NCBI RefSeq assembly: GCF_965641715.1
Contig: NZ_OZ282453.1
Source of the DNA: Escherichia coli
Lineage (GTDB): Bacteria > Pseudomonadota > Gammaproteobacteria > Enterobacterales > Enterobacteriaceae
Reading direction: 5' to 3' (one strand)
DNA: 64,000 bases
The notes beneath the pieces are model-generated. The model searched no databases. It had not been told where the DNA came from and worked only from the letters and a program-made list of their open reading frames with translations. Made by a program: the position numbers and the translations under genes. Below, piece by piece: positions 3,222 to 43,309 of this stretch (positions are counted from its first letter, which is position 1; the number at the start of each line of letters is the position of its first letter).

Positions 3222-3824
3222 CTATAAAACAGCGTGACGCTGTCGTCCTCTGGCTCTATCCCAGATGCCGTAAAAACGCCCTGCATTGCTGGCGGTATAC
3301 CAGACAGTATGACGAATATTGCGATGCCCAAGATAATCCTGGATAAGTCGCGTATCTATTCCCATATTCGCCAAAGCAAAACCACACGAATGGCGTAACA
3401 TGTGCGGATGAATCTCCAGTGACAACCCGGCATTACCACCGGAAGTCGAGATAATATGGTAAAACTGTTGCCGAGAAAGCGGATTTCCCTTACGTGATAA
3501 AAATACCCACTCGCTCTCAGCATGCGGGTACGAAGTACGGATACTCAACCAGTTTTTTAAAGCCTGAACTTCTTTGTTCAATAGCGGATGCGTTGTTGAA
3601 AAGCCTTTTTTTAATCGATGGATATATATACACTTTGCCTTAAGATCAATATCCGAAATCCTCAATCGACAAATTTCACTCGCCCGGAAACCATGAATAA
3701 AACAAAGCAAAGTCAGACAATAATTACGTGCTGCATGAGGCCCGGTATTTGCTGCTTTAAGGAGTGATTCGATTTCACTATGGGTCAGGAAGTTCCTTTT
3801 TTTGTTATCAGCCTTATTCTTCAT
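3222..3824 (-). CDS. fimB: Tyrosine recombinase FimB (bidirectional fim switch recombinase; 200 aa from the ATG at 3824)
   Basis: MKNKADNKKRNFLTHSEIESLLKAANTGPHAARNYCLTLLCFIHGFRASEICRL...; paralogue of FimE upstream of it. Confidence 0.95.
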   Translation of the reverse strand: MKNKADNKKRNFLTHSEIESLLKAANTGPHAARNYCLTLLCFIHGFRASEICRLRISDIDLKAKCIYIHRLKKGFSTTHPLLNKEVQALKNWLSIRTSYPHAESEWVFLSRKGNPLSRQQFYHIISTSGGNAGLSLEIHPHMLRHSCGFALANMGIDTRLIQDYLGHRNIRHTVWYTASNAGRFYGIWDRARGRQRHAVL

Positions 3825-4834
3825 CGTTTTTCCCTTATAATTACAGACGCGCACTAGCTGTGCTGGGTTAGCAATAATCCAACATTTTTATCCTGATTAT
3901 GTTTATAAAAGCGAACGTTTGCTTAATAACTAACGTAAGTGGACCAGTTCTTCTGAGTGAACTTAAATGGAGTAGCAACAGTTAATTATAATAACGTTGC
4001 CATACAAACGCTATGCTCTTGCATGCTATGTACCTTTATATATTTATCAATCGGATACGAATCTAATAATAACCCTCATCATTAATGCAACTAATCTTAT
4101 CTATATATCATGTGATATGTTCTGTAACAAGTAAAATCAACATAAAAAATTCAGCAAAATTTAATATTCGTTCAACTAGCCGTCTCACATATGACATTAT
4201 TAGTCAACTCCATTTGCCACAAAATGGCTATTTCATGGAACGCAGTAATTTCTTAGTGGCTATTATCATGCTAATTCTTAGGTCCCTAGCGATTATTCCT
4301 GGCTGGTTCGTCAGTTTAGGCCATGAGATTGTTACATTCCTTTTTATCATGGAGATATGGGGGAAAGCAGGAAACGATTTTTTCATCTACATTCGTTGGT
4401 AAATATAGCTTTGGTCACTACGACTTAAACCTTCCTCAATCACAGGTATTCGCCGGGCGATACGGCAAACAAACTAAGTGAAACATCATCCTGAAAACAC
4501 CAACATCAACAAGCCTCTCCAGATCGACTTCAGAAGTGACCAGTTACAAGCCACAAACCAGGAAACATATTTCATGATGAGAATTATGCTCAGCCTGATG
4601 GCGGGTAAACACTGATTTTCACCAAGCTCACTGAGTTAGCTTGCAAAGCTTTCCTTGTTTAGACTCTAAATAAATTATTTATAAAACAAATAGTTAAACG
4701 AAGATCTTTAGTTTTTGAAGACCACCGCAAGTGTTCGTCTGGCTTCACATGGCATCTTCCTCTTAGAAAAAGATCGACATATTTTGTGACACGAATTGCA
4801 AATCTGGTTTTGTTGTATGGATTGCGTGATTTTT

Positions 4835-6014: not shown

Positions 6015-7121
6015 ATGAATAAAACAATAACGGCGCTTGCTATCATGATGGCTTCATTTGCCGCAAACGCGTCTGTATTACCGGAAACTCCTGTGCCATT
6101 TAAAAGTGGTACCGGAGCAATTGATAACGACACTGTCTACATTGGTTTAGGTAGCGCAGGTACGGCATGGTACAAGCTGGAGACACAGGCCAAAGATAAA
6201 AAATGGACAGCGTTAGCTTCATTCCCTGGCGGACCAAGAGATCAAGCAACCTCGGCATTTATTGATGGTGATCTGTATGTGTTTGGCGGCATTGGCAAAA
6301 ATAGCAAGGGCTTGACTCAGGTATTTAATGACGTACACAAATACAACCCCAAAACCAATAGTTGGGTTAAATTGATGTCGCACGCACCGATGGGCATGGC
6401 GGGTCATGTGACTTTTGTACACAACGGCAAGGCTTATGTTACTGGCGGTGTTAACCAGAATATCTTCAATGGCTATTTTGAAGATCTCAACGAGGCTGGA
6501 AAAGATTCAGCCGCTATAGATAAAATCAACGCTCACTATTTTGACAAAAAAGCAGAAGATTATTTCTTCAATAAGTTTCTGTTGTCTTTTGATCCCTCAA
6601 CCCAGCAATGGAGTTACGCTGGCGAATCTCCCTGGTACGGAACGGCTGGTGCGGCGGTTGTGAATAAAGGTGATAAAACCTGGCTTATTAATGGCGAAGC
6701 CAAACCCGGATTGCGAACGGATGCCGTATTTGAACTTGATTTCACCGGTAATAATTTAAAATGGAATAAGCTTGCTCCCGTCTCATCACCAGATGGCGTC
6801 GCTGGCGGTTTTGCGGGGATAAGCAATGATTCTCTTATATTTGCCGGAGGGGCCGGATTCAAAGGTTCACGAGAAAATTACCAGAACGGTAAGAACTATG
6901 CGCATGAAGGCCTGAAAAAATCATATAGCACTGATATTCATCTTTGGCATAACGGGAAATGGGATAAATCGGGTGAATTATCGCAAGGTCGGGCCTACGG
7001 AGTATCATTGCCCTGGAATAATAGTCTATTGATTATTGGCGGTGAATCTGCAGGCGGCAAAGCGGTGACGGATTCAGTTTTGATCTCTGTGAAGGATAAT
7101 AAAGTTACAGTACAAAACTAA
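6015..7121 (+). CDS. nanM: N-acetylneuraminate mutarotase NanM (Kelch-repeat periplasmic protein)
   Basis: MNKTITALAIMMASFAANA signal peptide, repeated GG/Kelch motifs; AGGAGA ribosome-binding site before the ATG at 6015; the ORF-track start at 5907 is an extension into nanC. Confidence 0.9.
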   Translation: MNKTITALAIMMASFAANASVLPETPVPFKSGTGAIDNDTVYIGLGSAGTAWYKLETQAKDKKWTALASFPGGPRDQATSAFIDGDLYVFGGIGKNSKGLTQVFNDVHKYNPKTNSWVKLMSHAPMGMAGHVTFVHNGKAYVTGGVNQNIFNGYFEDLNEAGKDSAAIDKINAHYFDKKAEDYFFNKFLLSFDPSTQQWSYAGESPWYGTAGAAVVNKGDKTWLINGEAKPGLRTDAVFELDFTGNNLKWNKLAPVSSPDGVAGGFAGISNDSLIFAGGAGFKGSRENYQNGKNYAHEGLKKSYSTDIHLWHNGKWDKSGELSQGRAYGVSLPWNNSLLIIGGESAGGKAVTDSVLISVKDNKVTVQN

Positions 7122-7185
7122 CGCTTCAGGGCCCCAGTAAAGGGGCCCTGCTATCAATTTGTCATTTCAATTACGCGAAATTTAT

Positions 7186-8166
7186 ATGAACGCAATAATA
7201 TCGCCTGATTATTACTATGTTCTTACTGTTGCTGGTCAGTCTAATGCCATGGCGTATGGCGAAGGACTGCCATTACCGGACAGGGAAGATGCGCCTCATC
7301 CCAGAATTAAACAATTAGCGAGATTTGCGCATACGCATCCCGGAGGCCCGTCATGTCACTTTAACGACATTATTCCACTGACTCACTGCCCACACGATGT
7401 TCAGGATATGCAGGGTTATCACCATCCTCTGGCAACGAATCATCAAACACAGTACGGCACCGTTGGCCAGGCACTGCATATTGCACGGAAATTACTGCCC
7501 TTCATTCCTGATAATGCAGGGGTTCTCATCGTTCCATGTTGCCGTGGCGGATCGGCTTTTACCGCGGGCAGCGAGGGGACATATTCAGAACGGCACGGAG
7601 CCAGCCATGATGCTTGTCGTTGGGGAACGGATACTCCGCTGTACCAGGATTTAGTCAGCAGAACGCGAGCCGCACTGGCAAAAAATCCGCAGAACAAATT
7701 CCTCGGCGTATGCTGGATGCAAGGCGAATTTGACTTAATGACCAGTGACTACGCGTCACACCCTCAACACTTTAATCATATGGTTGAAGCCTTTCGTAGG
7801 GATCTAAAACAATACCATTCTCAGCTGAATAATATTACTGACGCGCCGTGGTTTTGCGGCGATACCACCTGGTACTGGAAAGAAAATTTCCCTCATGCGT
7901 ATGAAGCTATTTATGGCAATTATCAAAATAATGTTTTAGCTAATATTATTTTCGTCGACTTCCAGCAACAAGGTGCAAGAGGGCTAACGAACGCGCCTGA
8001 TGAAGATCCGGACGATTTAAGCACGGGATATTACGGTTCAGCGTACCGGTCACCGGAGAACTGGACGACGGCACTGCGAAGCAGTCATTTCAGCTCAGCA
8101 GCCCGTCGGGGGATTATTTCTGACAGGTTTGTAGAAGCAATTTTGCAGTTTTGGCGCGAAAGGTGA
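7186..8166 (+). CDS. nanS: 9-O-acetyl-N-acetylneuraminate esterase NanS
   Basis: MNAIISPDYYYVLTVAGQSNAMAYGEGLPLPD... (SGNH-type GQSN motif); third gene of nanCMS; a hairpin at 7128-7149 separates it from nanM. Confidence 0.9.
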   Translation: MNAIISPDYYYVLTVAGQSNAMAYGEGLPLPDREDAPHPRIKQLARFAHTHPGGPSCHFNDIIPLTHCPHDVQDMQGYHHPLATNHQTQYGTVGQALHIARKLLPFIPDNAGVLIVPCCRGGSAFTAGSEGTYSERHGASHDACRWGTDTPLYQDLVSRTRAALAKNPQNKFLGVCWMQGEFDLMTSDYASHPQHFNHMVEAFRRDLKQYHSQLNNITDAPWFCGDTTWYWKENFPHAYEAIYGNYQNNVLANIIFVDFQQQGARGLTNAPDEDPDDLSTGYYGSAYRSPENWTTALRSSHFSSAARRGIISDRFVEAILQFWRER

Positions 8167-8173
8167 GCGTTCA

Positions 8174-8824
8174 TTAATTTGATTTATTCGCATCCATCAG
8201 CGCTTTTAACTCCTCCGGCGTAAACGGTGGTTTGCGTCGGTGCAACATCGCATGGCAATTAGGGCACACAGGAAGTAAATCATTAACTGGATCCAGCTGG
8301 TAATCCTCTTTAATGGCTGAAAGCGGCACCAGGTGATGCATATGGATAAAACCCTCAGCGATATCGCCATAGATCTTCACCAGATCAACGCCGCATACGT
8401 TGCACTGGCATCCGTGATGTTCGACTGCTTTCTCGCGAGCTTTTTTATCGCGTTCATAGCGGTTTACCGTCACCTTTATCGCCGCACCTTCAACGTAGGT
8501 CCCCTGCGACGGCAACTCATCCGGGAACAGAACATCGGCTATGGGAGCCGCAGCGGCTTTATCCTGATGAATATGAAATCCCTGATCTATAAGTAGCTTG
8601 ACGCATTTAGATTTTATTCCGCCGGTGAAATCCGCAGGGGTAAATTGCGTCCCCGTCATCAATGTCGCTGCGATGCCAGCAATCGCCTTCGAGGGGTAAC
8701 GTCGGCCATGATATTCAATCTCATACAACCGCGCAGGCTGGAACTGATGAGTTTCTCCCGCATCCCATAAATGGATAGCTTCGATGATATACCGCCGCGG
8801 AAGATGGTCGGGAAGTTTATTCAT
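8174..8824 (-). CDS. HNH endonuclease-domain protein (216 aa) with an uncharacterised N-terminal domain
   Basis: C-terminal His-Me finger: HHGCQCNVCGVDLVKIYGDIAEGFIHMHHLVPLS...NDLLPVCPNCHAMLHRR; convergent with nanS, 8 bp apart. Confidence 0.6.
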   Translation of the reverse strand: MNKLPDHLPRRYIIEAIHLWDAGETHQFQPARLYEIEYHGRRYPSKAIAGIAATLMTGTQFTPADFTGGIKSKCVKLLIDQGFHIHQDKAAAAPIADVLFPDELPSQGTYVEGAAIKVTVNRYERDKKAREKAVEHHGCQCNVCGVDLVKIYGDIAEGFIHMHHLVPLSAIKEDYQLDPVNDLLPVCPNCHAMLHRRKPPFTPEELKALMDANKSN

Positions 8825-8903
8825 GGGGAATATCCTTATACGTTCTCAGAACAGGCAGCAAAAAAACAAATGAGATCAAGGTAATATATCTTCACTTGCA
8901 GGC

Positions 8904-9146
8904 TTGAACAGCAGAAAATTTGCGAGCATGATCGCAATTATTTCACTGCCAGGGATATCAATGGCTTCCAGTAAATCGCTACAGCAGGCAATTGCCAATA
9001 TAAAAATCTGGCACAAGGGTGAACAGCGCACGCCGCATAAGCCATTGTTATTGCTATACGTATTAGCGGGATACCTGAATGGACATCCGCACCTTTTCGA
9101 TTATTGTAGTGGAACAGTCTACGAGGATGCAGTTCGAAGTGAGTAA
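8904..9146 (+). pseudogene. Truncated 5' fragment of a gene paralogous to the HNH protein at 40750-41670
   Basis: Fragment ...LQQAIANIKIWHKGEQRTPHKPLLLLYVLAGYLNGHPHLFDYCSG aligns with N-terminal ALKQAISNITIWRKGEQRAPHKPLLLLHVLSHYRQGHGRLFNYGSE of the 306-aa protein; the ORF stops after 80 aa. Confidence 0.55.
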
Positions 9147-9202
9147 GTAAAGGTTGCTGGAAACGATCAATGCCGCCATACAATGATATTTGAGGATCAA
9201 CA

Positions 9203-9388
9203 ATGAGTAATAAAAACTACGAAAGTCACCGCAAAGCGATTGTTAGTAAAGGTATACCACCCGCTCTATTAAATAGGCTCACCAATTCGGATGTTCAGGT
9301 GATCAATACCTTCTTAACACGAGTGAGCAAACTGGAACTATCTCAACAAGAGAAAGACTGGATCATAAAAATCATCTCTATGGTTTAG
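9203..9388 (+). CDS. Small hypothetical protein (61 aa)
   Basis: ORF only; no recognisable motif. Confidence 0.25.
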   Translation: MSNKNYESHRKAIVSKGIPPALLNRLTNSDVQVINTFLTRVSKLELSQQEKDWIIKIISMV

Positions 9389-9406
9389 AGAATTTCAGCC
9401 TTGTAG

Positions 9407-10075
<669 letters not shown>

Positions 10076-10301
10076 GTGGCGGTAACACGGTCTCAACGAT
10101 ATGACGCTGCACACTACGATAAAAAAGAGGAGTTTAAAGATAAGATAAAGGGCGGCTTCAGGGGGATAAAATAGAATGTAATGCGCAGAAAACACGTATA
10201 AATTTCAAACAACGATGGTTAAAAAGTTAGCTGGGTCAACTCCCCCACACTGAGTCGGTGGAGGAGTATTCGTGATTAAGGGACGAAGGTTATAGACCGT
10301 G

Positions 10302-12533
10302 TTAGTTCTCAACCATCAATCGGGAAAGTTTGGCAAAAATCGAACTCTTACTACTTTCGCCACTCCTGAGCATATCCAGGGTGAAGCTATTGAGGTAAGC
10401 ACCAGTTAACGGGTGGTTAAATACATCTACGGCCTTACCTTGGGCGTCCCATATCAGCAGATTTTCTACCAGGTTAGGCCGTGCAATAGTAGGATTTGTA
10501 GGCTGAGCATCGCTTACCAGAACAAACACTCCATTCACATGCGGTTGCAGGTAAATATGGTGATGCTTCATCTTTTGAGTTTTGGTCAACGAGTCGTATT
10601 TCGAGCGGCCCGGTGATATCAGATAGGGCAGTACGTTTTGCTCCAATTTTGCTGAGCGGGTGATGGTATAGCCGTTAAATTTATCACCTTTACGCTCCGC
10701 CAGCGCTTTTTCTTGTTCCTGATAAGCATATGAATCGACGATATTAAATTGCGCTGGGCCAATCAGGCGCGGCACGCGGGAGCTGTTATAGGTGGTAAGC
10801 AGCACATCTGCTGTGTGGTCGTAGAGATAGAAGCTTTTATCGAATAATTTCTTTAGTCGTCCCAGAGCTGGATGATCAACAGATAGATACTCGAATTCAC
10901 CTTCAGCGATCCCGGTATCAACCACCCTAAGTTGGCCGCGCTCTATTTTTAGTTCAACATATCCAAGCAGGGAGAGATAGCTTTTTGTTTTGCGTACTGA
11001 ATAGGCGGTATAGTGCCCATCCGCCAATTCTGGCAGTGGTATGTTATGTTGATTGAGTAAGCTCTCTTTGAACCATAGTTCAGTTTTTGTTCGGCGTACC
11101 TTACTTTTCAATAAGGTAACTGCTGACTTGAGACGACTGTGTGGTTTCGTCAGTTCGATTTCGTATTGTGCAGGGTTGCTTACCAATTGTTCATTAATAA
11201 AATCAATCGCATCCAGCAACTTACGATCAATATTCATTCCTTGTAAAACCACAGGCACCGGTTGCTGATTTAGCCACCCTTGCAAACGATCTAGCTTAAG
11301 CTGGGTATAGGTATCCCAGTTGAGTTCAGGCTGTTTTCGGGCGTCGTCAAAGGCTGCATAGAAATCATTGTACTCAACAGATTCATTCTCTTGCTGCCGG
11401 ATGCTGTTGCTTCGTTCTTCCTCTACCGCATTGAGTACCAGAATAGATGTATTGGCAGGCAGCTCAGCAAATCCGGTTTGTCGGGAATGCTTAAGCGATG
11501 CAAGAGGCCAGAGTTGATACCCAGGGAACTGGTTGGCTAATGCATCAAAGAAATAAGCTTCTTGCGTGACGCTGAATTCGACGCCGTTATTAACCACCAA
11601 CAGCGTATTAGCCAGCTGTTGATCGAGGTCGGTAGCAAACTGATTGACCTCGTGTGTAGCCTGAAATGGGATAGGTTGATGGGGGATCTCTAGTTCACTG
11701 AGGCGCTCGCTGGCAGCATTCATGACCACGTTATAGGTATAGACCTGGCATTCGCCATAGCCGCTGCGCTCACGAAAAAAATCCAGTTTGCTATCACGGG
11801 CATCAAGTTTGCGCCGAGCTTTAAGCCGACGATTATCGATGTTAAACCACACGCTGGTATCATCCAGGGATAGGTGCATCTCATCCGCCGGTTCGACCAG
11901 GAATTTTCGTTTGTGCAAGGTAAAAGCGAGTTCATTATATTCTGAGGCATAAATGTCGAGCTCAAAGGCTTCCATCACCCCGATGCCTTTTTTTTGTGTG
12001 ACGGGCTGACTCAGACGAGCGTTAAGGTAAAGCGTTGAGTTGAAGTAAGTCGGCGATACCGAAAAGCGCTCACTGGCTTTTTCCAGCATTACCATTTTCA
12101 AATGCAGGCTAAATAATCCCTGAATCAGGCGAGATAGGTCATGATTTTCAGCGGTGAGTTGCTGACAAAGCGTTTCAATACGTTCTGCCAACGTCCTATG
12201 AGCCTGACTGTTCGGGTTAGTTGCAGGCGCCAGGAAAAAAAAGACGTGATGGTAATTTGGTAAGCAATGCAGTTCATATTTTACCTCCTGCCCGGCCTCC
12301 AGCCCAAGCTTCTGCCGCACGCAAGATTTTACCTCCTGATGAATTCGCGCATAGTAATCAGCGGATTTTTCTTTTCGCTCTTTAGTAAAGCGCTGAACCA
12401 TAAAGTCTATCGTATAGATATTAGATACAGGGGCCAATAGACGCTGGATGGTCGTCAGCTGATCTTCTTCAAGCTTGATCAAATTGGTTCGGGCAATCGG
12501 AGCATCCGTCAGTTCATTCAAATTAGGGATCAT
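10302..12533 (-). CDS. Uncharacterised 743-aa protein, downstream partner of the helicase-like gene
   Basis: Long ORF whose ATG overlaps the stop of the upstream gene (ATGA at 12530-12533); no nucleotide-binding or methyltransferase motif recognised by eye. Confidence 0.7.
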   Translation of the reverse strand: MIPNLNELTDAPIARTNLIKLEEDQLTTIQRLLAPVSNIYTIDFMVQRFTKERKEKSADYYARIHQEVKSCVRQKLGLEAGQEVKYELHCLPNYHHVFFFLAPATNPNSQAHRTLAERIETLCQQLTAENHDLSRLIQGLFSLHLKMVMLEKASERFSVSPTYFNSTLYLNARLSQPVTQKKGIGVMEAFELDIYASEYNELAFTLHKRKFLVEPADEMHLSLDDTSVWFNIDNRRLKARRKLDARDSKLDFFRERSGYGECQVYTYNVVMNAASERLSELEIPHQPIPFQATHEVNQFATDLDQQLANTLLVVNNGVEFSVTQEAYFFDALANQFPGYQLWPLASLKHSRQTGFAELPANTSILVLNAVEEERSNSIRQQENESVEYNDFYAAFDDARKQPELNWDTYTQLKLDRLQGWLNQQPVPVVLQGMNIDRKLLDAIDFINEQLVSNPAQYEIELTKPHSRLKSAVTLLKSKVRRTKTELWFKESLLNQHNIPLPELADGHYTAYSVRKTKSYLSLLGYVELKIERGQLRVVDTGIAEGEFEYLSVDHPALGRLKKLFDKSFYLYDHTADVLLTTYNSSRVPRLIGPAQFNIVDSYAYQEQEKALAERKGDKFNGYTITRSAKLEQNVLPYLISPGRSKYDSLTKTQKMKHHHIYLQPHVNGVFVLVSDAQPTNPTIARPNLVENLLIWDAQGKAVDVFNHPLTGAYLNSFTLDMLRSGESSKSSIFAKLSRLMVEN

Positions 12534-15500
12534 GAGACTTTTCCTTTAGTCGGCAACTTTTCTACACCCAGCAGGGTTAGTAACATTGGGTTAATGTTCA
12601 ATGTCATGCTCAGTTTCGAATTTTCCAGAGCTCGTCCGCTCTCTCGATTTTTGGGCTGATAGTACTGATAGTCGGTTTGCAACAGGTTAAGGTAGTGGAT
12701 CGTGTGATCCACGTTATCTTGCCACATCAGATTATTGGGGTTCTGGCTGTAGGCGACGTTCAGATAGACAAATCGAATGCGTTCGTAACGGCCTGACAGC
12801 ACAGCCTGAAGCTGTTTCTGTCCCTCTGTATCCGCCTTTTGGCTGGTGATATTACGGATCTGGCGAATCTTGTTGTTGCTTTTCTCAAGCGTTTCTTCTG
12901 CCCGCGTTAAATCATCCAACTGCGTCGCCCAGCGTTTAACGTCGATGCAGAGCAGGTCGTTACCCACTTCAATAAAGCGGTCAAAAAACTCATATACTAG
13001 CGGTTCAAGGCGTTCAAACACCTGTTGATCAGAAAGTGGGGTAACGCCATAGCTTTTTAGCACTTTATCGAAGAGATATTCACCGACATTGCCTTTGAGC
13101 AACGGAACTAGCCTGGGGTTGGGTACCCATTTTTTGAATGCCGTTTCCTGGATGTTGTCACATTCACGAATCAACTCGCCGACCAGGTTGCCGGGGGTAA
13201 AATCGACATCGTTTCTATACTGCGGAAAGAGGGTGAGCTCAGGCCGGTACTCTCTTGCGCCGCCAGCGAAATCCGACAGGGCGGAATAATCTCTGTGGAC
13301 AAGTCCATCCGGGCCGCGTTTGTGGCAAAGTAAAATAGTTTGATTGCCCTGATGGCGGTCGATAAACAGGGCGTGGTGGATTGATTGCATTTGCCGATTG
13401 GCGGCATACAAGGAATTAGCCTGAAGTTTTTCCAGCCAACGCATGGGATTGGTAAAGGAGTCAGAATCGCGGAATAAATTACACAATTCGAGATATTCAA
13501 GGTTGCCGGCGCGTACCTGATTTATCCAGTCGGTTTTCAGGACTCGCTTATGAACAGCATCGATGCGGCGACCATTTTCTACGATAGCCTGTTCAAACGC
13601 ATACCGCTGTTCTGCATCTCTAAATGACTGGTTCTGACTCAGCTTTTCGCACTCCTCCATTAGGCGGTGGTTAAGCAAGGACATGCTTTCTGATACTACC
13701 TCGTTACCGCTATCTTCACTGAGAGCGGCGAACTGGAATGCAACATTACGGAACACATCGCGGGGTAAAAAGATTTCTGTTTTCAATAGAGTGTCGCGAC
13801 GCTCGACTCGCCCTACGGCCTGCACGACGACTTTGAATAAGCTCATATCATGTTCGGCCATTAACAGGCGATAGTTTTCGCCGTGGGCGAAATTAACGTT
13901 GAAATCGGCCAGCTTGTGGACGGTAATATCGTCATCAGCGTAGTGTTTAAGCACGGTAACGTAGTTAGGTAATGTATTAAGATTGCCGCTGTTGTCCTTT
14001 ACTTCGCTGTAAAACGAGGAGTTGATGAGCACTAAGCGCTCAAAATCGACATCCAGACGTGGTGCATTGATATCATTAATATCGCCGTCATGGTATTTCA
14101 CAAAGTAGTTGAGGCCAGTGCCTGCACTTTTGTAGCTGCTCATAAATACCAGTACGGTATTGCTGTTCTTGAGATAGGTTTCTTGCCTAATATCTTCGAC
14201 ATTAGCCAGTGGTGAATCGAAAAAGACCAAATGGACTGTGTGACGCCCTTTGAATGGGGTAAAGGTCAGGATCTGGTCATGTTTCTTATCGTTATCCGTT
14301 TTATCATCGCACCGGGAGTGCATACCGTACTGCTGACGCCAGGCTGATTGATGAGTGCGCCAGGCGCTGATAAAGGCCCGCTTAAATGTCCCTGAAAGGG
14401 ACAAAATCAGGCTGTTTTTACCCTCGTAGGCGGCAAGCAATAACGCTTCAAGCTCCCGCTGGTACTGACGCCGTTTATAGGTATTTTTCAGGTCGTACTC
14501 CAGCGGTTTCTTCAGCGCGTCGAAAAAGTTGTCATACGTCCTGCGATAGATCTCACAATTTTGGTAGATATCGGTCAATTTTAACTGCTTATCATCGAAC
14601 ACCCTGAAGTCGACGTTGCGGATACTGGCTCTCAACGCGCGTAGTGCTCTAAGCGTATCGATATCTGTTTTTTTACGTTCAATGACTCGATAGCCAAGGT
14701 CACGGCTATAGCGCTCCAGGAAGTGACGATTGAAGTTACCGTTTTTGGTGTGGCTAAAACCACTGGTGGCGCTAAATCCAATCACTTTATTGTGCGTGCC
14801 CGTTAATAAACGTAGCAGCATGGCTTCAGGCAACTCTTGTACCAGATCCATCTCAAACGCCAGAATAATTGTACGCTCGGCTCCACTGTTCACGTAATTG
14901 AGTTCAACTATCGGCGTCATCGTGAATACGGTTTTGGGTTGCAGATAAGTGTAGAAATGATCAATCAACAAGTTTTTATCGGTGGTGCGATCGAAGATAT
15001 GTCGCACCACTCCAGCTACATTATTGGCTGCGTCAACAAATTGGCCCAAAGGTGTATTCTGGCTGCTGGAGTTATCCTGGCCACCATTTTTTACCCAGCG
15101 CTTAAAGTGTCGGTTGGTGATATCAGAACAGGCGGCGAGGATGACGGAGACCAATTGGAACAGATCGTGCAGTGTGGGATTGGTGTCGCTGGCATCATTT
15201 TCGACTTCGTAATATAGCTCGGTGCGCGTTATGTCGCCTTCGCTGTTGCGCATACGAATGCGTTTCAGCCCCTCTTCATTAACGTACATTTTGGGGTTAA
15301 AACTGAACACATTCCGGGTAATGGAAATGATGCGTTCGGCGGCGTCGCCGTTAACTTCGAATGCTCCTAACTGGTCGCGAAACATCTCCAGGATCGAGCC
15401 CAGCGTCGTACCGGGTGATAATTCGCACTTTTTCGCCAGTAGGTCTCGAAGGATGGTGATGAATTTGACCATCTCTTGCTCAAAGGTCGTTTGCGCTTCT

Positions 15501-17239
15501 TTGGGCTTTTTCCGGCGCTCCAGGCTGAGTACCGCATTGTGAATACGTCCCGCGACAGAGATAACATGCGCCAGATTATTTTCCTGTGTGATTAGCTTTA
15601 CATGGCATGTTTCTTCAAGACGGGTGTAGGCTTCATGTAGTTCATCAATGATTACCGTAAAGCGAATATTTTTCTGGCGAAAAGGGCAGTCTGGATTACG
15701 TCTGAAGTGTTCATCACGAAGATAAGCAACCTGCCCGGAATGGCCAGCTGCCGCAACGGTGCTGATCTGTGGATCTTTGGGAGCCAGCTTGCCACCAATC
15801 AGCAAGTCGAAACCTACGGACTCAAAATGCACGCCTTCACCTCGCTGACGAGGCGCCAGTCGGTAAGTTGATGTGTCGAACTTATTTGTAGTCATTAATA
15901 GCACCGACGGGCGGTACTGGCAAACTTCGAAAGGCAATACCTGTTTGATAAGCTCGAAGTAGACTTCGTGTACGCTTAGTTCAGACTTGCTTGGTTTTCG
16001 TGCTGTCTCCGCGTGTTGCATTCGCTCTTGGCGCGCCTGGAGCCCGCGACGAATGTACTCTTTAATGGAAGCTTTTTCACTATCTGGTCCAAATAGTAAT
16101 TTACAGGCTGACTCAATCGTATTGCGGATACTATGACGACAGTTTTTTAGCTGCTCTTCAAGAATTTCTCTTTCGTAGTTGTTATCCTGAGAACCGTATG
16201 TTGTCAGCTTTTTTAACTGCTCTTCACAGCGATCAATTTGTGAGACATGGTAATTGAGCGAACGCATTGCGCTGCCAATATATTTGCTACCTTTCGCCCC
16301 TTCGTACCACTGAATATAGCGGTCGCGATTTTTCAGGCCCGTGGCCCAGTCCATAAAGTCGAGATCGGCAATATCCTTACGAGAGAGAACGCAAATGAAT
16401 TCGCCGCCAGAAGCCAGAATTTTATCTTTCTGGCTGCTATCCAGGTCGATTTGTGATTTTTGCGGCGACATGAACAGCAGGTTGGTAAAGCCACCTTCGG
16501 GAAACAGATCATCTGACTTTTGTTTTTTGGCGAAACACTCCAGATATTCGACATACCCTTGAATTACGCCATAACTTTTGCCAAACCCCGTGCCATCGGA
16601 ACTGAAGATGACCTCCGCGCCATCACGTTCATGCACGTGGTAAAGTTGAGAAACTTGGGCGCGGCAAGCGTTAATATCTTCAACCAGCGTTATGTCAGGA
16701 ATTTGCCTGGAGATGAGATCTTGCAGATTATTATTGATAGTTATCTCTCCCACACGCTCACACTCACGGTAACTATTGATGGTTATTTGGCTGCTTTCGA
16801 GCAGAATCTTTTCCACTTGCATGGGAGCAAGATGCAAGGCTGTTGCAATTTCATTGATAGTATCTGATAGAGGTTCGTGTGGATTGCTAATCGTGAAGTG
16901 GTTTAGTACTGCTGCAACGGTATCTGGATGCAATGCTTTTCTGAGAGTGGGGAAGGTGAGGCTGTAATCGTATAGCGCCAAATCATTGTTTATCAGACAG
17001 CGAAACAGCTGTTTAGTGGGATCGCCTCCAGGACGGCTGGCAAATCCCAGGATTTTTGCCTGTTCGAGTCGATACAACAATGCTGCAGCATCGCGATCAG
17101 GTGAGTCAAATGCATCGTGAAGCTGCTGGCTAAATGGCATTGTGGCATTCAGCCGGTTATGGCTGACCAACGCGGAAAAGTGCTGACGTACCAAGGTAAG
17201 CAGCTTACAATCTTCCTTTATAGTCCAGTTTTTTCTCAT
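12530..17239 (-). CDS. Large SF2-helicase-like NTPase (about 1570 aa from the ATG at 17239; the ORF track begins at a GTG at 17275)
   Basis: Walker A DGTGFGKSYG, DExH-like Walker B VIIDELHEAY, motif III-like GFSATSGF, motif V-like SSYKSAGTGLNYF, motif VI-like QAVGRVERR, then about 400 aa of C-terminal sequence without recognisable motifs; GGGGAAG ribosome-binding site before the ATG at 17239. Confidence 0.7.
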   Translation of the reverse strand: MRKNWTIKEDCKLLTLVRQHFSALVSHNRLNATMPFSQQLHDAFDSPDRDAAALLYRLEQAKILGFASRPGGDPTKQLFRCLINNDLALYDYSLTFPTLRKALHPDTVAAVLNHFTISNPHEPLSDTINEIATALHLAPMQVEKILLESSQITINSYRECERVGEITINNNLQDLISRQIPDITLVEDINACRAQVSQLYHVHERDGAEVIFSSDGTGFGKSYGVIQGYVEYLECFAKKQKSDDLFPEGGFTNLLFMSPQKSQIDLDSSQKDKILASGGEFICVLSRKDIADLDFMDWATGLKNRDRYIQWYEGAKGSKYIGSAMRSLNYHVSQIDRCEEQLKKLTTYGSQDNNYEREILEEQLKNCRHSIRNTIESACKLLFGPDSEKASIKEYIRRGLQARQERMQHAETARKPSKSELSVHEVYFELIKQVLPFEVCQYRPSVLLMTTNKFDTSTYRLAPRQRGEGVHFESVGFDLLIGGKLAPKDPQISTVAAAGHSGQVAYLRDEHFRRNPDCPFRQKNIRFTVIIDELHEAYTRLEETCHVKLITQENNLAHVISVAGRIHNAVLSLERRKKPKEAQTTFEQEMVKFITILRDLLAKKCELSPGTTLGSILEMFRDQLGAFEVNGDAAERIISITRNVFSFNPKMYVNEEGLKRIRMRNSEGDITRTELYYEVENDASDTNPTLHDLFQLVSVILAACSDITNRHFKRWVKNGGQDNSSSQNTPLGQFVDAANNVAGVVRHIFDRTTDKNLLIDHFYTYLQPKTVFTMTPIVELNYVNSGAERTIILAFEMDLVQELPEAMLLRLLTGTHNKVIGFSATSGFSHTKNGNFNRHFLERYSRDLGYRVIERKKTDIDTLRALRALRASIRNVDFRVFDDKQLKLTDIYQNCEIYRRTYDNFFDALKKPLEYDLKNTYKRRQYQRELEALLLAAYEGKNSLILSLSGTFKRAFISAWRTHQSAWRQQYGMHSRCDDKTDNDKKHDQILTFTPFKGRHTVHLVFFDSPLANVEDIRQETYLKNSNTVLVFMSSYKSAGTGLNYFVKYHDGDINDINAPRLDVDFERLVLINSSFYSEVKDNSGNLNTLPNYVTVLKHYADDDITVHKLADFNVNFAHGENYRLLMAEHDMSLFKVVVQAVGRVERRDTLLKTEIFLPRDVFRNVAFQFAALSEDSGNEVVSESMSLLNHRLMEECEKLSQNQSFRDAEQRYAFEQAIVENGRRIDAVHKRVLKTDWINQVRAGNLEYLELCNLFRDSDSFTNPMRWLEKLQANSLYAANRQMQSIHHALFIDRHQGNQTILLCHKRGPDGLVHRDYSALSDFAGGAREYRPELTLFPQYRNDVDFTPGNLVGELIRECDNIQETAFKKWVPNPRLVPLLKGNVGEYLFDKVLKSYGVTPLSDQQVFERLEPLVYEFFDRFIEVGNDLLCIDVKRWATQLDDLTRAEETLEKSNNKIRQIRNITSQKADTEGQKQLQAVLSGRYERIRFVYLNVAYSQNPNNLMWQDNVDHTIHYLNLLQTDYQYYQPKNRESGRALENSKLSMTLNINPMLLTLLGVEKLPTKGKVS

Positions 17240-18364
17240 TCTTCTTCCCCTTAATATAAATGCACCTGCAACCACTCAGCCAAACGCTCAACGTCAAAAC
17301 CCGTAATCCATACTCCCACGCCAAAAACGTCTTCGATAAATATTCATCATATTTTCGAGGCACTTTTCAGAGATGCTCTTGGCAAGACGGGACTCAGGGG
17401 GTAAACCTTCCTGTAGTAAATTGCTTAGCGTCTGCTTAACTTTCCCGAGCGTATTTTTTCAACTACGGCAGCAAATGAGACGGTCTTAAAACCGTGCAGG
17501 ATAGGCCATATCTACAACGTGTTTACTACTTGAGCACACATTGTGATATGGCAGTCACCTTTCCGACAAATGGTGAACCGTCCCTGACGAACAACAACAT
17601 TAACGCATATCTCTTCATCGCCTGATCAAAGTAGCTGCCAACTATTATTCGCCTCAACAATGAGTTTTTTTACTAACGATTTCTACTACCTTCCCAAAGC
17701 GACCACAACAATCAAAAATATTGTTTACACATCAGTCTCATATCACCGGAGTAAGTTGACTATTGATAAACCATTTCAAGATATTAATAGCTGATCATAC
17801 TTCCCCAAAGTGCTTATTTATAGCGAAGGCAAATAGCATAAACTGAAGGGCGAATTGTTAAATCATACCGTGAATGAGCTGAAGAACAAGCATAAAAATT
17901 ATATCATTTACATGACTTATGTGTTTTAGTTAAATGATAAATAGGCAGTATAAAATCCAATTCAACAGCCGAGTTCAAGCGATTAATTTTTTGATGAGCT
18001 TATCAAGCACGAGCAGCGATACCAGCAAATCCACTTGGTTGCTTGAAGAATATGACTCCTTCAACACATAGCAGATTATCTCCGCCGTTGGTAGAGAACC
18101 GTTCACCGTTGTTAGTCAACAGTTATAAATTTATATTAATGATTAGAAGAATCTATCTCGGGGTAGATCATCAACATTACTTATTCTAAACCACGTTACA
18201 CATGATCTCCGGGGCAGCGAAGTCATCAAAAAAGAGTATTATAAAACTCCGCCCTTAAGGAGAAAGGTTTCCTGGCGGTTGTAATGCCGTTGACGATACA
18301 GCGCACAACACGGATATAAACAACCATTTGATTGATTAATATCTGAAGGGCTGTTTATATTTAA

Positions 18365-18635
18365 TCAAGCTAACGATTCATTAATCTTTACATAGAGATG
18401 AGGTAATGTGGCCTCATTGCGATTCACATCCAGATAATCCGCCCCCCACTGCAGCATCTGCCGCTCTACCGCATCTCTCGGCCATAGCCCCGACTCAATC
18501 AACGACCTACACGCCATTGCCCTGAAACCATGCCCACAAAAAGCAGCTCTCAATTTCCATTCATGCTTTATACCTTTTCTAATAGGCTTTTGCTTCAGGC
18601 TTAGCCGAACGAACCTTCACATCACTCAAAGCCAT
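18365..18635 (-). pseudogene. Internally deleted P4-type integrase remnant
   Basis: N-terminal piece MALSDVKVRSAKPEAKAY-stop (18579-18635) and C-terminal piece ...GHGFRAMACRSLIESGLWPRDAVERQMLQWGADYLDVNR (18365-18553), both matching the intact integrase at 41841-43109. Confidence 0.7.
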
Positions 18636-18766
18636 GATGAATACCCTTTCAAGGGTTTTGTGTGGGTACAAACATTATCCAATCGGGATATACCCGCAGC
18701 TGTAGCTGTACCCGCATCAGTAAGTTGATGTAGATTCGAAAAATAGCGGAAACCCTGTGTGACACT

Positions 18767-18821
18767 GATTTCAGGCACAAAAAAAGACGTCTGTTGACGT
18801 CTATTGATGGTGCGAAGGCCG
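18767..18821. repeat. Degenerate copy of the leuX terminator and tRNA 3' end (attachment-site remnant)
   Basis: GATTTCAGGCACAAAAAAAGACGTCTGTTGACGTCTAT...TGGTGCGAAGGCCG compared with 43261-43325 GATTTCAGGCATAAAAAAAGACCTCAGTTGAGGTCTAT...TGGTGCCGAAGGCCGG; the hairpin keeps pairing through compensatory changes. Confidence 0.65.
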
Positions 18822-18937
18822 CACCGCGATTCCAGACTCAACAATATGAAATCAATGGATTTTTAAAAATGCGAAGTTACTTTGTATACTCACATGTATA
18901 CTCAGTACCATTTCTTAAGAAATCAATTCATTCAATA

Positions 18938-19744
18938 CTACTCATCATCGTCTTCCACTGGTTCCAGCACATCAAGCGCAACTCGCACCATAGCGATAGA
19001 ACCAATACGAATGAAAGCATCTTCTCCATCTTCGTCGGTTATCATAAAACGATCCGTGGTTTCAGGCTCGCAATCCAGCGCGTCAAAAAAAGCATTCAAC
19101 TGGCCGATATCATCCGTCTCTTCGTTTTGCGGCGCATCTGGCTCAACACTCAGTGGAATCACTGGTCCGCCGTTTACCAGCGTGATATGGACATTAAAAT
19201 AATCGTCTTCGTAGGCATCATCCTCTTCGTCAACGATTGGCCGCAGACCATCAGAAAGGAACTGATGAAATACCACTTCACGCATATTTAACGCATAACG
19301 ATACTCGGAAGAATCAAAAACGAAGAAGCGTTCTATGTTTGGGGCGTTTTTTTCCTGAAAATAATAATAAAACCTCCGCTTATCCGCTGCTGAAATGGGC
19401 AACAGCAAATAGTCCCTCTGCCCCTGTAGCCAAAGTTTTACGGTCCAGAGACCGCTATCCATTTCAATGCCGCTTGTGGCTATAGCCTCAAGATCTTCAT
19501 CAGTTTTACGACGCTTTTTGCGGAAGTCGTTTATCAACCGATCGCTTTCCGGGAACACTACGTTTAGAGGCTTATCCAGAGCATTACATATCGCCTGTGC
19601 GAGACCCAGCTTTGCAGCAACCTTCCCGGTTTCGATACGCTGAATTTGTTGCTGGCTGGTGCCGACCATAAACGCCAGCTCGCGCTGGGTGATAGATAGC
19701 TGGGTACGGAGCTGTTTGATGTTGTTCTGTAACATGGCATCCAT
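18938..19744 (-). CDS. XRE-family helix-turn-helix protein with a long acidic C-terminal region
   Basis: N-terminal HTH (LSITQRELAFMVGTSQQQIQRIETGK); C-terminus ends ...LDVLEPVEDDDE. Confidence 0.55.
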   Translation of the reverse strand: MDAMLQNNIKQLRTQLSITQRELAFMVGTSQQQIQRIETGKVAAKLGLAQAICNALDKPLNVVFPESDRLINDFRKKRRKTDEDLEAIATSGIEMDSGLWTVKLWLQGQRDYLLLPISAADKRRFYYYFQEKNAPNIERFFVFDSSEYRYALNMREVVFHQFLSDGLRPIVDEEDDAYEDDYFNVHITLVNGGPVIPLSVEPDAPQNEETDDIGQLNAFFDALDCEPETTDRFMITDEDGEDAFIRIGSIAMVRVALDVLEPVEDDDE

Positions 19745-19849
19745 CCTTCAGAAGGAATAGAAAGTGCCATTAAAACACAAAATTGAGTATAAACACATAA
19801 TCGTGTTTACACTCACTAATCAACACCCTTGAACGAAAAGAAAATCTCT

Positions 19850-20125
19850 TCATCGTTCTTCTCTGGTATGCCAGAGATCAACTATATAAATGTCATTGTC
19901 ACGAAGTTCGTAGTGAACCTCATAGTCATCAAATAACACTTTTCGGACTTCCCGAGGTTCATACCGAGTCTGCTGTACACCAATTGCCGGATGTGCTGTA
20001 AGACCAGCACAACCAGTAATCAGGCGATCCAAAACGTCATCGGCGTGCTGGCGGCTATACTGAAGGGCGAAACGATAGATACGCTCAAGGTCATCCTGAG
20101 CTTTAAGCGTCCAGTAAATTTCCAT
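19850..20125 (-). CDS. ParE/RelE-superfamily toxin (91 aa)
   Basis: Small protein directly downstream of a ribbon-helix-helix-type antitoxin gene with a 3-bp gap; ParE-like size and sequence character. Confidence 0.6.
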   Translation of the reverse strand: MEIYWTLKAQDDLERIYRFALQYSRQHADDVLDRLITGCAGLTAHPAIGVQQTRYEPREVRKVLFDDYEVHYELRDNDIYIVDLWHTREER

Positions 20126-29216: not shown

Positions 29217-30194
29217 TTAACGTGCCCGCTGTTTTATCGGCTCAAAAAACATATCCCAGAGATGTTCAGCCATACCCTCGTTAGTGAGCAAGGTATCCCT
29301 TGAGTAGCCAGGGCTGAAGACGCCCATTGATGGGCGAAAACCAAGGTTCTGGCCGTTATTGTCAATGGTTAAGATTTCATTGTAAGCATTGCCAATCACG
29401 CCATCCTGGCTATAACCAATATCGCCCATCCCCATATTTCGCCCGCTATTACGCCAGATTGCACATTGACCTACTTTGCTTCCCCCAATGTAGATCGCAC
29501 AAGTGAAGGCATCTGCGTCACGCTTATTAAAATCGACCTCTAACCCGGCATGGCGTTTTTTGAGTTCAGTCAGCGAGCCTTCAAAATAACGGGCGACATA
29601 TTCAAAACCGTCACGGCAGGCACGATCCTTATCAAGATCGGTAAAACGTTTTGGCAGTGAAAGGTTGCTCGAGCGTGGTGTAAAAACGGTATCCGTCGCC
29701 TGAAGCATTGGATTAGCCGGAGCTGGGGCGTGCACAATCTGTTGCGGCTTTTTCGCTTCCAAATTGGCAATAGCGCGGGAAACGGCATCGACAACCTGAA
29801 CATAGCCTTCATCATGGCTGGCAAATTTATCAATTGGCTTACCGTCAACAGTTGCCGCCAGAATGCGGCCAAACGGTAACATCTTCCACGCGCATTCTCT
29901 TAAGATCACCGGAATGACCACCGCCTCGCCCCGGCTATGTCGCTCCAGAGCGTTGGTCATTTCTACCTGATAGCAATAATCAGAAGCGATAAAATCACTG
30001 CTAATCAGCAACAGGATGATGTCTGCCTGAGAAAAGTAATGATCTATTTGGTTCTCAAACTCTTGTCCTGGAATGATGCGACGATCATGCCATGTCGTGA
30101 TCTTGCCCATGCGTTTCAGGGGGGAAAGATGCTTCTCAAGCTCATTGCGCAGAGCTTCGTCTGCATGAGAATAGGAAAAAACAAGAGAGGTCAT
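29217..30194 (-). CDS. TIR-domain protein with an uncharacterised C-terminal domain (325 aa)
   Basis: N-terminal TIR signature LVFSYSHADEALRNELEKHL...IILLLISSDFIASDYCYQVEMTNALER...VVIPVILREC; divergent from hsdM. Confidence 0.65.
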   Translation of the reverse strand: MTSLVFSYSHADEALRNELEKHLSPLKRMGKITTWHDRRIIPGQEFENQIDHYFSQADIILLLISSDFIASDYCYQVEMTNALERHSRGEAVVIPVILRECAWKMLPFGRILAATVDGKPIDKFASHDEGYVQVVDAVSRAIANLEAKKPQQIVHAPAPANPMLQATDTVFTPRSSNLSLPKRFTDLDKDRACRDGFEYVARYFEGSLTELKKRHAGLEVDFNKRDADAFTCAIYIGGSKVGQCAIWRNSGRNMGMGDIGYSQDGVIGNAYNEILTIDNNGQNLGFRPSMGVFSPGYSRDTLLTNEGMAEHLWDMFFEPIKQRAR

Positions 30195-40749: not shown

Positions 40750-41670
40750 TCAATGCTCTCCTCTGAACACCTCTTTTCTGTGCCATTCCACAAACTGCTC
40801 GCCCGGATAATTTTCTTTAACCGGTGGCAACGCAATCGCCTTTCCCGCAAAATCCCAGAACAGTCGCTGTACCACTCCACCACCATTTACCGCGCCGGAA
40901 ACCACCACACGCATATTTTCATCCAAGCCAATCGAACCGCGATCAAACGCTTTATGATGGATTGCGCACAATGCCAGGCCATTAGGTACTTCACAAGGGC
41001 CATGGTGCTGCTTCCATCTGATATGAGCAGCTTCCAGAGCAATTGGCGCATTGTCGTGGCGCATGTTGAAGCCGCAGATCGCACACTGATAATTGTAAGC
41101 ACGTAGCACCATCTGGCGGAACTTCGGATCGCGTTGACGGAGAGAGGTGCGAATATCAAAACCCATCTCGTCAGCTATCTCTTCCTGAATACTGGCCGGG
41201 AAATGCGCCTCCAGGAGCTGCTGCGCCAGCGTATCAATTAACCTGTGATTTTTTGCCACCAACGCAAAATTATCGGCATCAAATCCACCAGCGACATTAT
41301 ATTCAATGAGTTCACGTCGGGGCGGCTGGCGGCTACCACTGGTTGAGCACAGTTGTGCGTTTTGTAGTTCCCAGAAGCCATCGCCCTTCAGACGCCAGAA
41401 CGGCATGTCCGGGCGCTGGTCACGGCGCTGCGGTCCATAACGTTCCAGAAGATCCAACAGGGGCTCGTAGATTTCAGAACCATAGTTAAACAGGCGACCA
41501 TGACCCTGCCGATAGTGTGAGAGGACGTGCAGCAGCAATAATGGCTTATGTGGCGCACGTTGTTCGCCTTTGCGCCAGATGGTGATATTTGATATCGCTT
41601 GCTTTAGGGCTTTGTCAGAGGTCATTGCGTTGAAGAATCCATGAGCACATATTTGCGATGATGCTCGCAA
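40750..41670 (-). CDS. HNH-nuclease-domain protein (306 aa) beside the integrase
   Basis: C-terminal His-Me finger YQCAICGFNMRHDNAPIALEAAHIRWKQHHGPCEVPNGLALCAIHHKAFDRG; N-terminal region shares the KPLLLL motif with the fragment at 8904-9146. Confidence 0.6.
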   Translation of the reverse strand: MRASSQICAHGFFNAMTSDKALKQAISNITIWRKGEQRAPHKPLLLLHVLSHYRQGHGRLFNYGSEIYEPLLDLLERYGPQRRDQRPDMPFWRLKGDGFWELQNAQLCSTSGSRQPPRRELIEYNVAGGFDADNFALVAKNHRLIDTLAQQLLEAHFPASIQEEIADEMGFDIRTSLRQRDPKFRQMVLRAYNYQCAICGFNMRHDNAPIALEAAHIRWKQHHGPCEVPNGLALCAIHHKAFDRGSIGLDENMRVVVSGAVNGGGVVQRLFWDFAGKAIALPPVKENYPGEQFVEWHRKEVFRGEH

Positions 41671-43298: not shown

Positions 43299-43309
43299 TT
43301 ACATACTTT

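Follow-up and report, generated by a model that had tools for sequence, protein, structure and literature searches.

Genomic islands that integrate at tRNA genes restore the gene they enter and leave a displaced fragment of it behind, and tandem arrays of such islands are recognised, with 125 arrays of two or more islands recorded in the Islander database (PMC4383910). The tRNA gene leuX is a classic hotspot for integration, at which one expects to find tandem arrays that have decayed. For the island PAI II536 it has been established by experiment that the integrase excises and reintegrates the element specifically at leuX, and that excision leaves an incomplete leuX while reintegration restores the complete tRNA gene (PMC3202238). 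Satellite phage P4 and a cryptic element of K-12 are further described systems at this site.

Here we analyse a 64-kb stretch of Escherichia coli DNA, referred to as the window, in which two modules of island DNA lie between nanS and leuX. We hold it very probable that positions 18366-18821 are the fossil leuX-side junction of module 1 and hence the seam between two tandem leuX islands, of which module 1 cannot excise site-specifically and module 2 possibly can.

Results

Organization of the nanS-leuX region

The gene order of the window, taken from the open reading frame list and the annotation of near-identical genomes, runs from fimE/fimB and nanC-nanM-nanS through ~35 kb of island DNA to leuX, ahr, the idn genes, yjgR, lptG/F, pepA and valS. 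The sole tRNA gene in the window is leuX, which is complete and lies on the minus strand, and the island DNA therefore sits downstream of the tRNA 3' end (Table 1). No complete RefSeq genome was identical to the window; strain A30 matches it at 99.3-99.9% identity as far as ~29.4 kb, beyond which its cargo is different.

Table 1. Coordinates of the junction features, the two modules and leuX in the window
Feature	Position	Strand	Basis
Module 1 remainder	8170-18365	.	left end without core copy or arm repeats
int1' C-terminal fragment; HGFR kept, 25-codon deletion removing the catalytic Tyr region, TGA end	18366-18540	-	blastx against Int2
int1' internal fragment, 51 bp, ~residues 214-223, frame differs from the other pieces	18532-18582	-	86% nt identity to D4/NDM3 integrase
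int1' N-terminal 19 codons (MALSDVKVRSAKPEAKAY), then stop	18579-18638	-	18579-18699 is 93.4% identical to D4/NDM3
Upstream region of the former int1, the old element's P' arm; GTACCCGCA-like repeats (three) at 18661, 18690, 18708	18639-18777	-	homologous to D4 integrase-leuX interval
Relic intrinsic terminator; 7-bp stem, AACA loop, T run	18778-18802	-	terminator prediction
Displaced leuX 3' end TGGTGCGAAGGCCG; recombination core, one base shorter than the tRNA	18808-18821	-	alignment; breakpoint with other proximal elements
Module 2 distal arm (P arm); two exact GTATACTCA repeats at 18884, 18896	18822-18910	.	exact copies elsewhere only upstream of int2
Module 2 body	18911-41840	.	annotation of near-identical genomes; PADLOC, NCBIfam
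int2, intact P4-family tyrosine integrase, 422 aa	41841-43109	-	three integrase domains
int2 upstream region (P' arm); GTATACTCA at 43137, 43178; current leuX terminator at 43279-43296	43110-43309	-	
leuX, tRNA-Leu(CAA), complete	43310-43394	-	

A relic of the leuX 3' region at the seam

A sequence-only reading of this DNA had described 18767-18821 as a degraded duplicate of 43261-43325. Local alignment paired 18742-18824 with 43233-43327 at a score of 70, against a mean of 14.7 (sd 2.0) and a maximum of 24 in 500 shuffles, so the claimed similarity to the leuX 3' region is significant. By BLAST, the relic was also 82% identical over 56 nt to the equivalent leuX-proximal copy in two other strains. 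An Rfam search of 18000-19300 returned nothing relevant.

Each copy contains a predicted minus-strand intrinsic terminator with a 7-bp stem, AGACGTCAACAGACGTCT followed by TTTTTT in the relic (18802->18785) and AGACCTCAACTGAGGTCT followed by TTTTTT on the leuX side (43296->43279). The two hairpins are one compensatory pair (C:G versus G:C) and one loop base apart, which agrees with the stem-keeping change proposed earlier, and the relic terminator would formerly have served leuX while module 1 was proximal. The tRNA piece beside it corresponds to the final 15 nt of leuX (TGGTGCCGAAGGCCG) less one base. Thus 14 nt of the tRNA end are present where a degenerate stretch of ~15 nt had been reported, but the missing base proved to be a recurrent signature, considered below, rather than random decay. 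Measured against the functional junction of strain D4, the relic has a deletion of ~8-9 nt between hairpin and core as well as indels further upstream, and these, from their sequence, look like ordinary decay.

The dead integrase derives from a lineage distinct from Int2

Adjoining the relic are the remains of an integrase gene, int1', whose reading frame opens with an ATG at 18635 and encodes MALSDVKVRSAKPEAKAY up to a stop codon. The N-terminal piece (codons 1-19, 18638-18582) shares 79% identity with Int2, the integrase of module 2, and the C-terminal piece (18540-18380) matches Int2 residues 341-367 and 393-418 (blastx, E 2.7e-20), such that homology over the surviving pieces places int1' in the P4 family. 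Of the catalytic set (R, K, HxxR, Y), HGFR alone remains, deletion having taken the Tyr region together with most of the catalytic domain. The gene had been read as an N- and a C-terminal piece of a P4-type integrase with ~1 kb lost internally; the family and the extent of the loss hold, but there are three fragments, and the ~1 kb was removed overall by at least three deletions rather than by a single internal one.

The nearest relatives of these fragments lie outside the window. In strain D4 an integrase of this type, a pseudogene there, directly abuts a complete leuX and shares the upstream region and the GACGTC-type terminator of the relic, and this D4 junction is the closest relative of the relic (93% nucleotide identity over the integrase start and upstream region). 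The C-terminal piece of int1' alone has 89.5% nucleotide identity to the D4/NDM3 integrase. In strain NDM3 the D4-type junction has been displaced by a P4-like satellite carrying a retron. The K-12 gene intB was considered as the source lineage of int1' and rejected, as the K-12 leuX junction is of the GACCTC type and just 45 nt of the relic match K-12. Judged by these comparisons, the relic is a former leuX junction of an integrase lineage distinct from Int2, and its description as a duplicate of the present leuX side is right as to the similarity and mistaken as to the origin.

We also weighed whether the region could be a single composite island whose leuX-integrase end was duplicated internally, with later decay of the inner copy. 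Such a duplication would give both junctions the same architecture of tRNA end, terminator and integrase, as is seen; however, the inner integrase fragments are nearer to the D4-type gene (86-93% nucleotide identity) than to int2 (79-83% where alignable), the D4-type protein is just 78% identical to Int2 in amino acid sequence, and the upstream arm repeats differ, being GTACCCGCA-like at the inner junction and GTATACTCA at the outer. The inner junction also occurs with three different proximal elements, as detailed below, and we regard internal duplication as in practice refuted and exceedingly improbable.

Module 2 retains both ends of a P4-family island

Module 2 spans 18822-43309 and carries an HTH regulator, RelE/CopG, a DUF4942/CbtA/YeeU/RadC/DUF932 backbone, a GTPase, WYL, a ThsB-like TIR protein, a type I R-M system and a phosphorothioate-dependent restriction endonuclease. 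Its integrase gene starts 200 bp from leuX, and the full-length Int2 has the Arm-DNA-bind_3, Phage_int_M and Phage_integrase domains, in keeping with the intact integrase ascribed to the newer module; the protein is 82% identical in amino acid sequence to the PAI II536 integrase and 57% to P4 Int.

The exact 9-mer GTATACTCA occurs four times in the 64 kb, at 18884, 18896, 43137 (minus strand) and 43178, one pair lying 63-83 bp right of the relic core and the other between int2 and the terminator. Since these copies are limited to the two ends of module 2, they tie 18822-18910 to int2 as the two arms of one attachment site. A displaced tRNA 3' fragment is present at the far end in direct orientation, one base short, and module 2 is thus a P4-family island by its integrase, its displaced tRNA fragment and its matching arm repeats. 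At one and the same core, members of the module 2 family adjoin three left flanks, namely those of the window, of WL297 (a yjhR helicase flank) and of MS1266 (a flank of the strain 536 type). Even diverged members of the family keep G(C/G)ACCG(C/T)GATT on the right-hand side of the core, which marks this sequence as a family trait and not as damage. On these sequence features, module 2 is the sole candidate for site-specific mobility in the island region.

Module 1 is a mosaic with changing proximal neighbours

Module 1, at ~8.2-18.8 kb, is probably an older P4-family genomic island. It contains an HNH endonuclease gene (8174-8824), fragments of a phosphorothioate-dependent restriction endonuclease (~8796-9104), IS3-family remnants (~9400-10060), a DdmDE-like cassette (10302-17275) and ~0.9 kb of unannotated DNA (17445-18365). 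The module is a mosaic, in that the nanS-side remnants (the HNH endonuclease and the phosphorothioate-dependent endonuclease fragments) are shared even with K-12, and IS3-family remnants flank the 7.2-kb cassette (10200-17445).

Searches of the 64-kb window with a 25-mer, a 15-mer (up to 3 mismatches) and exact short cores matched only 18808 and 43310 and gave no third core copy or leftmost att site for module 1, nor was a distal cluster of its own GTACCCGCA-like repeats found. With neither integrase nor distal core nor distal arm, module 1 therefore has no means of site-specific excision on its own, as had been claimed from its lost integrase. The past of module 1 as a free-standing element is read from the integrase-side junction only, there being no detectable distal att site.

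The accompanying suggestion that the helicase operon, as the cassette was called, is fixed in place applies to site-specific excision and no further. The same cassette is found at 91.7% identity in another island, beside a pef-like fimbrial operon (ten among the matches listed; the context was read in one genome, L009), and the region has been replaced or deleted in other strains, the whole of 9406-18642 being absent from T16R.

Together with the identical gutted integrase and relic, module 1 joins three leuX-proximal elements. In the window, A30 and SaT040 its proximal neighbour is module 2. A29 has another CP4-like island in that place, and there the int1' remnant is 99.7% identical; AREA_C483 and 1218KP have a third element, which carries HigB, ImmA/IrrE, a P4 beta-like protein and an Hxs system. 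The 45 nt left of the core are identical in the window, A29, AREA_C483 and 1218KP. Homology to the window stops at about 18821-18824 in AREA_C483 and 1218KP, and in A29 the flanks diverge directly past the core, though the BLAST alignment runs to 18869. Among 5426 complete E. coli genomes, a junction-spanning query (17300-19900) was covered at >=80% in 43, the right end of module 1 at >=80% in 49, and the left end of module 2 in 92. The 43 junction-matching genomes may have inherited the array or received it whole by homologous recombination. If the two modules were always inherited as one unit, the notion of separate elements would fail; both occur apart in the compared complete genomes. With alternative partners on both sides and a shared breakpoint at ~18821/18822, the earlier proposal that two elements integrated successively at leuX, and the module boundary that it set, are well supported.

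SaT040, whose lineage differs by ~5% over this region, has the identical int1' deletion pattern. The same decay in a lineage this far diverged, and beside three proximal elements, implies that the integrase was dead before the present proximal occupants were exchanged, and this constitutes the best available evidence for module 1 as the older element. Module 1 thus probably predates module 2, judging by where it lies, by its decay and by the turnover seen in the proximal slot; the labels older and newer given in the sequence-only reading are supported to that extent.

The order of arrival is likewise deduced, and an element could in principle enter a distal site. The reverse history would have module 2 as the resident and module 1 as a later arrival in the distal site of module 2, followed by fast decay. 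Distal junctions do keep a core and are possible secondary targets, such that position alone is no proof of order, and an integrase side facing module 2 is what such an insertion would produce. However, the distal core and arm that module 1 should then have at ~8.2 kb were not found in the window, and the decayed int1' common to lineages 5% apart and to three proximal elements indicates that the proximal slot turned over after int1 had died. We consider this reversal improbable and retain the reading in which module 1 came first.

A model for the crossover and the history of the seam

On the side where the module 2 family was joined to three left flanks, CGAAGGCCG is all that it has in common with leuX, which argues for a crossover within those 9 bp. 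From the sequence of these joints, the exchange probably took place inside CGAAGGCCG, at the acceptor/T stem junction and directly right of the missing base; this stem junction is one recognised crossover subsite of tRNA-targeting integrases (PMC4383910). A crossover in the T loop was judged unlikely, as the T-loop part of the distal core varies (ACTCGAA, ACTCAAA, AATAGAA and ACTCGCA, with CACCGCG in the window) and CGAAGGCCG alone is invariant.

The history that we propose follows the standard model for tRNA-targeting tyrosine integrases. Module 1 would once have abutted leuX, supplying its tRNA 3' end and terminator, and module 2, with a related and distinct integrase lineage, would then have recombined with the rebuilt leuX, its arrival displacing the old junction by ~24.5 kb. 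The core at 18808-18821 would accordingly have a dual nature, as the dead proximal (left) junction of module 1 and as the distal attR-type junction of module 2. Excision of module 2 is predicted to give a circle with the joint ...ACTTTTGGTGCC GAAGGCCG CACCGCGATT... and an empty site of the form ...GTCTATTGA TGGTG-CGAAGGCCGGACTCGAACC..., carrying an 84-nt leuX.

The same base is missing from most displaced leuX ends

The single base absent from the window's tRNA piece was also absent in 10/10 E. coli relics read, which have different flanks on both sides. In strain 536 two bases are absent, giving the published 18-bp repeat CGAAGGCCGGACTCGAAC, and in T16R the core additionally has an 8-nt triplication of GGTGCGAA. 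Among the genuine displaced cores in IMG/VR, which have many different flanks, 37 of 39 were one base short and 2 were perfect, and the P4-like prophages with both ends on one IMG/VR contig had a perfect tRNA-side core and a short distal core in every case (8/8). The short core occurs in at least 18 Enterobacterales species genomes, including Yersinia, Photorhabdus, Xenorhabdus, Proteus, Serratia, Dickeya, Klebsiella and Enterobacter. A search blind to the deletion, with P4 positions 4078-4420 (343 nt) as the query against E. coli, returned matches of which the best 60 comprised 54 that were one base shorter, 5 of equal length and 1 two bases shorter. In the readable P4-arm alignments the core base was the sole indel in 6/7 contigs, the seventh having one more indel in the arm.

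These counts bear on whether the 14-nt tRNA piece could be no more than a repeat in random decay, its missing base without meaning. Small deletions are indeed present nearby, such as the loss of 8-9 nt from the hairpin-core interval in the window and of one arm of the hairpin in SaT040, and strain 536 and T16R depart from the one-base pattern at this very site. Random loss is nonetheless an unlikely account of one base missing from relic after relic, from two-ended prophages and across species, and the NDM3 relic flank is 99.5% identical over 1.3 kb to the functional junction of D4, yet the base is already missing.

Two sources of the defect were rejected. An incoming attP that lacked the base, with crossover to its left, is contradicted by the reference P4 attP, which is perfect, by the natural P4-arm prophages, which differ from P4 over the 343 nt by that base alone, and by strain 536, in which the defect of the distal repeat is on the chromosome side and reintegration of PAI II536 "restores" leuX (PMC3202238). 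A heteroduplex-segregation model predicts no bias towards the defect. The perfect P4 attP, taken with the restoration of a complete leuX by PAI II536 reintegration, indicates that the defect stays with the chromosome-side flank.

We tentatively suggest, as a possibility that may well prove wrong, that the missing base does not reflect decay but systematically accompanies P4-family integration at leuX across the order, and that the proximal island holds the functional tRNA "hostage". The defect lies immediately left of CGAAGGCCG, the one invariant block and the probable place of the crossover, and would so be kept on the chromosome side, and precise excision of the proximal island would leave leuX one base short and defective, as in strain 536. 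A site-specific process may cause the loss, for example one driven by the integrase or by the GCC-GAA-GGC mini-hairpin, which is very stable; or else the defect may have been enriched by survivorship of lysogens whose loss costs leuX. Among 3289 genomes in which a 91-nt junction query was covered at >=80%, a one-base-short leuX at the functional position was very rare, with 2 exact full-length matches (702/18 and BS-04), one of them doubtful in a frameshift-rich region. Because a one-base loss is the normal state of a distal leuX junction, the short tRNA piece alone is no proof that module 2 is immobile.

Module 1 carries a putative DdmDE-like cassette

The cassette at 10302-17275 encodes proteins of 1581 and 743 aa, the second gene overlapping the helicase gene by 4 nt. 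Sequence-profile searches (PADLOC, Pfam, NCBIfam, PHROGs and PDB sequences) gave no match for either protein, although the PADLOC release may not include DdmDE models, and the homologues of both are all "hypothetical" proteins of Gammaproteobacteria. Across 21 homologues of the 1581-aa protein, SF2 motifs I, II, III and VI do not vary. Its AF2 model (pLDDT 82, pTM 0.80) has 14 DdmD chains as the top structural matches, with E down to 9e-18, followed by XPD/DinG, so that the label of helicase given earlier is borne out both by the motifs and by a model nearest to Vibrio cholerae DdmD. A C-terminal nuclease may also be present, judging from a D...(D/E)xK-like pattern only. The AF2 model of the 743-aa protein (pLDDT 73, pTM 0.51) best matches DdmE (E 2.6e-10) and then long prokaryotic Argonautes, with low global TM scores (0.3).

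The pair thus combines a helicase fold with a downstream Argonaute-like partner, while sequence profiles do not recognise it as DdmDE. Gene order is like that of the V. cholerae plasmid-defence system DdmDE, and DdmD and DdmE are the best structural matches; in contrast, sequence identity to the cassette is 9-13%, and the cassette helicase protein has ~400 extra residues. Going by these predicted models, the cassette is most likely a defence module of the DdmDE-like kind (helicase-nuclease plus Argonaute-like), and a very distant one. At least 142 complete E. coli genomes carry it.

Discussion

Collectively, these findings make the seam an ordinary example of a well-known structure, a decayed tandem array of P4-family islands at leuX. 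For annotation, the module boundary is fixed at 18821/18822, the nanS-leuX region consists of two elements of different age and not of one island, and the part that could still move is module 2; module 1 cannot excise site-specifically. Module 1 also appears, from the structural models, to carry a DdmDE-like helicase/Argonaute pair that current profile libraries miss. The near-universal one-base defect of the displaced tRNA end would, if functional, link island stability to tRNA integrity.

The K-12 cryptic element at leuX (intB / PR-Y, KpLE2 region) occupies the same site, has an integrase pseudogene and matches the nanS-side remnants of the window at 7000-8169, 8796-8920 and 8981-9104; its junction is of the GACCTC type, unlike that of int1', and its cargo differs. 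The K-12 segments that were read contained no internal displaced core. Satellite phage P4 uses the same leuX 3' end as its core (TGGTGCCGAAGGCCGGACTC, P4 4078-4097), with arm-type repeats annotated on both sides of the core and the integrase adjoining it, as in module 2. P4 Int is, however, just 57% identical to Int2, P4 has no terminator between integrase and core, and the elements in the window are not satellites.

PAI II536 shares with the window the target leuX, an integrase 82% identical to Int2, the GACCTCAGTTGAGGTC terminator type beside leuX and a distal direct repeat of the tRNA end with its defect at the same position as in the window's core. It differs in its cargo, ~100 kb of virulence genes as opposed to the defence and toxin-antitoxin cargo of the window, in its distal repeat, in which 18 bp (CGAAGGCCGGACTCGAAC) shared with leuX have two bases missing to the left, whereas module 2's distal core shares 9 bp right of one missing base, and in lacking an integrase remnant beside the distal junction.

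The tandem arrays in Islander have the arrangement seen here, in which the island beside the tRNA gene is followed by a displaced tRNA fragment and then by another island. Islander counts as a member an island with its own integrase and its own fragment, and module 1, with an integrase remnant and no distal fragment, falls short of this. The window therefore holds a decayed array, in which it is the formal label that is lowered and not the historical inference of two islands integrated in succession at leuX.

A recurrent one-base defect in displaced leuX 3' ends

We compared the displaced leuX core at the seam between the two tandem islands (18808-18821) with those of loci L001-L005, L008, L010, L100, L226 and L227, IMG/VR loci L012-L095 and genomes L116-L222, and observed that the same single base is nearly always absent (TGGTG-CGAAGGCCG). 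This loss is independent of either flank and is seen across Enterobacterales, with perfect displaced cores being rare (2 of 39 in IMG/VR; about 5 of 60 among the best P4-arm matches in E. coli). In strain T16R (L008, ~3640-3690), the displaced core reads TGGTGCGAAGGTGCGAAGGTGCGAAGGCCG, in which GGTGCGAA is triplicated, and this sequence arrangement suggests slippage at the displaced-core site.

The same base is also gone at the functional position in strains BS-04 (L228) and 702/18 (L229), where leuX is 84 nt long (7038-7121) and adjoined by integrase pseudogenes. These genes could be cured sites remaining after excision; many genes in the BS-04 region are frameshifted, so an assembly error is possible there.

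Junction repeats and island gene content

Exact copies of the 9-mer GTATACTCA within the 64 kb are confined to 18884-18904 and 43137-43186, the two ends of module 2, the island nearest leuX. These repeats are candidate arm-type sites for binding by Int2, the intact integrase of that module. The dead junction, where module 1 formerly met leuX, has a separate repeat type, GTACCCGCA-like, at 18661, 18690 and 18708.

Coding features of the two modules are collected in the table below.

Coding features of the leuX island region
Feature	Position	Strand	Remarks
HNH endonuclease and phosphorothioate-dependent restriction endonuclease fragments	8174-9104		nanS-side end of island region
Overlapping pair of large genes, products of 1581 and 743 aa	10302-17275	-	predicted folds match DdmD/DdmE best
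TIR-domain protein	29217-30194	-	PADLOC ThsB model matched end to end, E 3e-157
580-aa ORF	37862-39604	+	directly after type I restriction subunit R gene
Second phosphorothioate-dependent restriction endonuclease copy, intact	40750-41670		inverted orientation; adjoins int2

The nanS-side phosphorothioate-dependent restriction endonuclease is full length in strains 536 and MS1266, and K-12 too retains fragments of it. Annotations of related genomes show no obvious ThsA partner for the TIR-domain protein. The 580-aa ORF lies within the window's lowest-GC stretch (0.32-0.36) and had no match in PADLOC or NCBIfam; at the equivalent position, the related SaT040 lineage has a shorter hypothetical gene.

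A DdmDE-like cassette in module 1

At least 142 complete E. coli genomes carry the paired large genes of module 1, which lie in at least two island contexts. Between these genes and the integrase remnant, about 0.9 kb (17445-18365) is without a long ORF and is found only in genomes carrying module 1; in strains A29, AREA_C483 and 1218KP, an IS3 copy is inserted at ~17404-17408. Sequence searches of Pfam, PADLOC, NCBIfam, PHROGs and the PDB returned no match for either protein. The predicted fold of one best matches the Vibrio cholerae helicase-nuclease DdmD and that of the other the Argonaute-like DdmE, and the gene order is identical to that of V. cholerae ddmDE.
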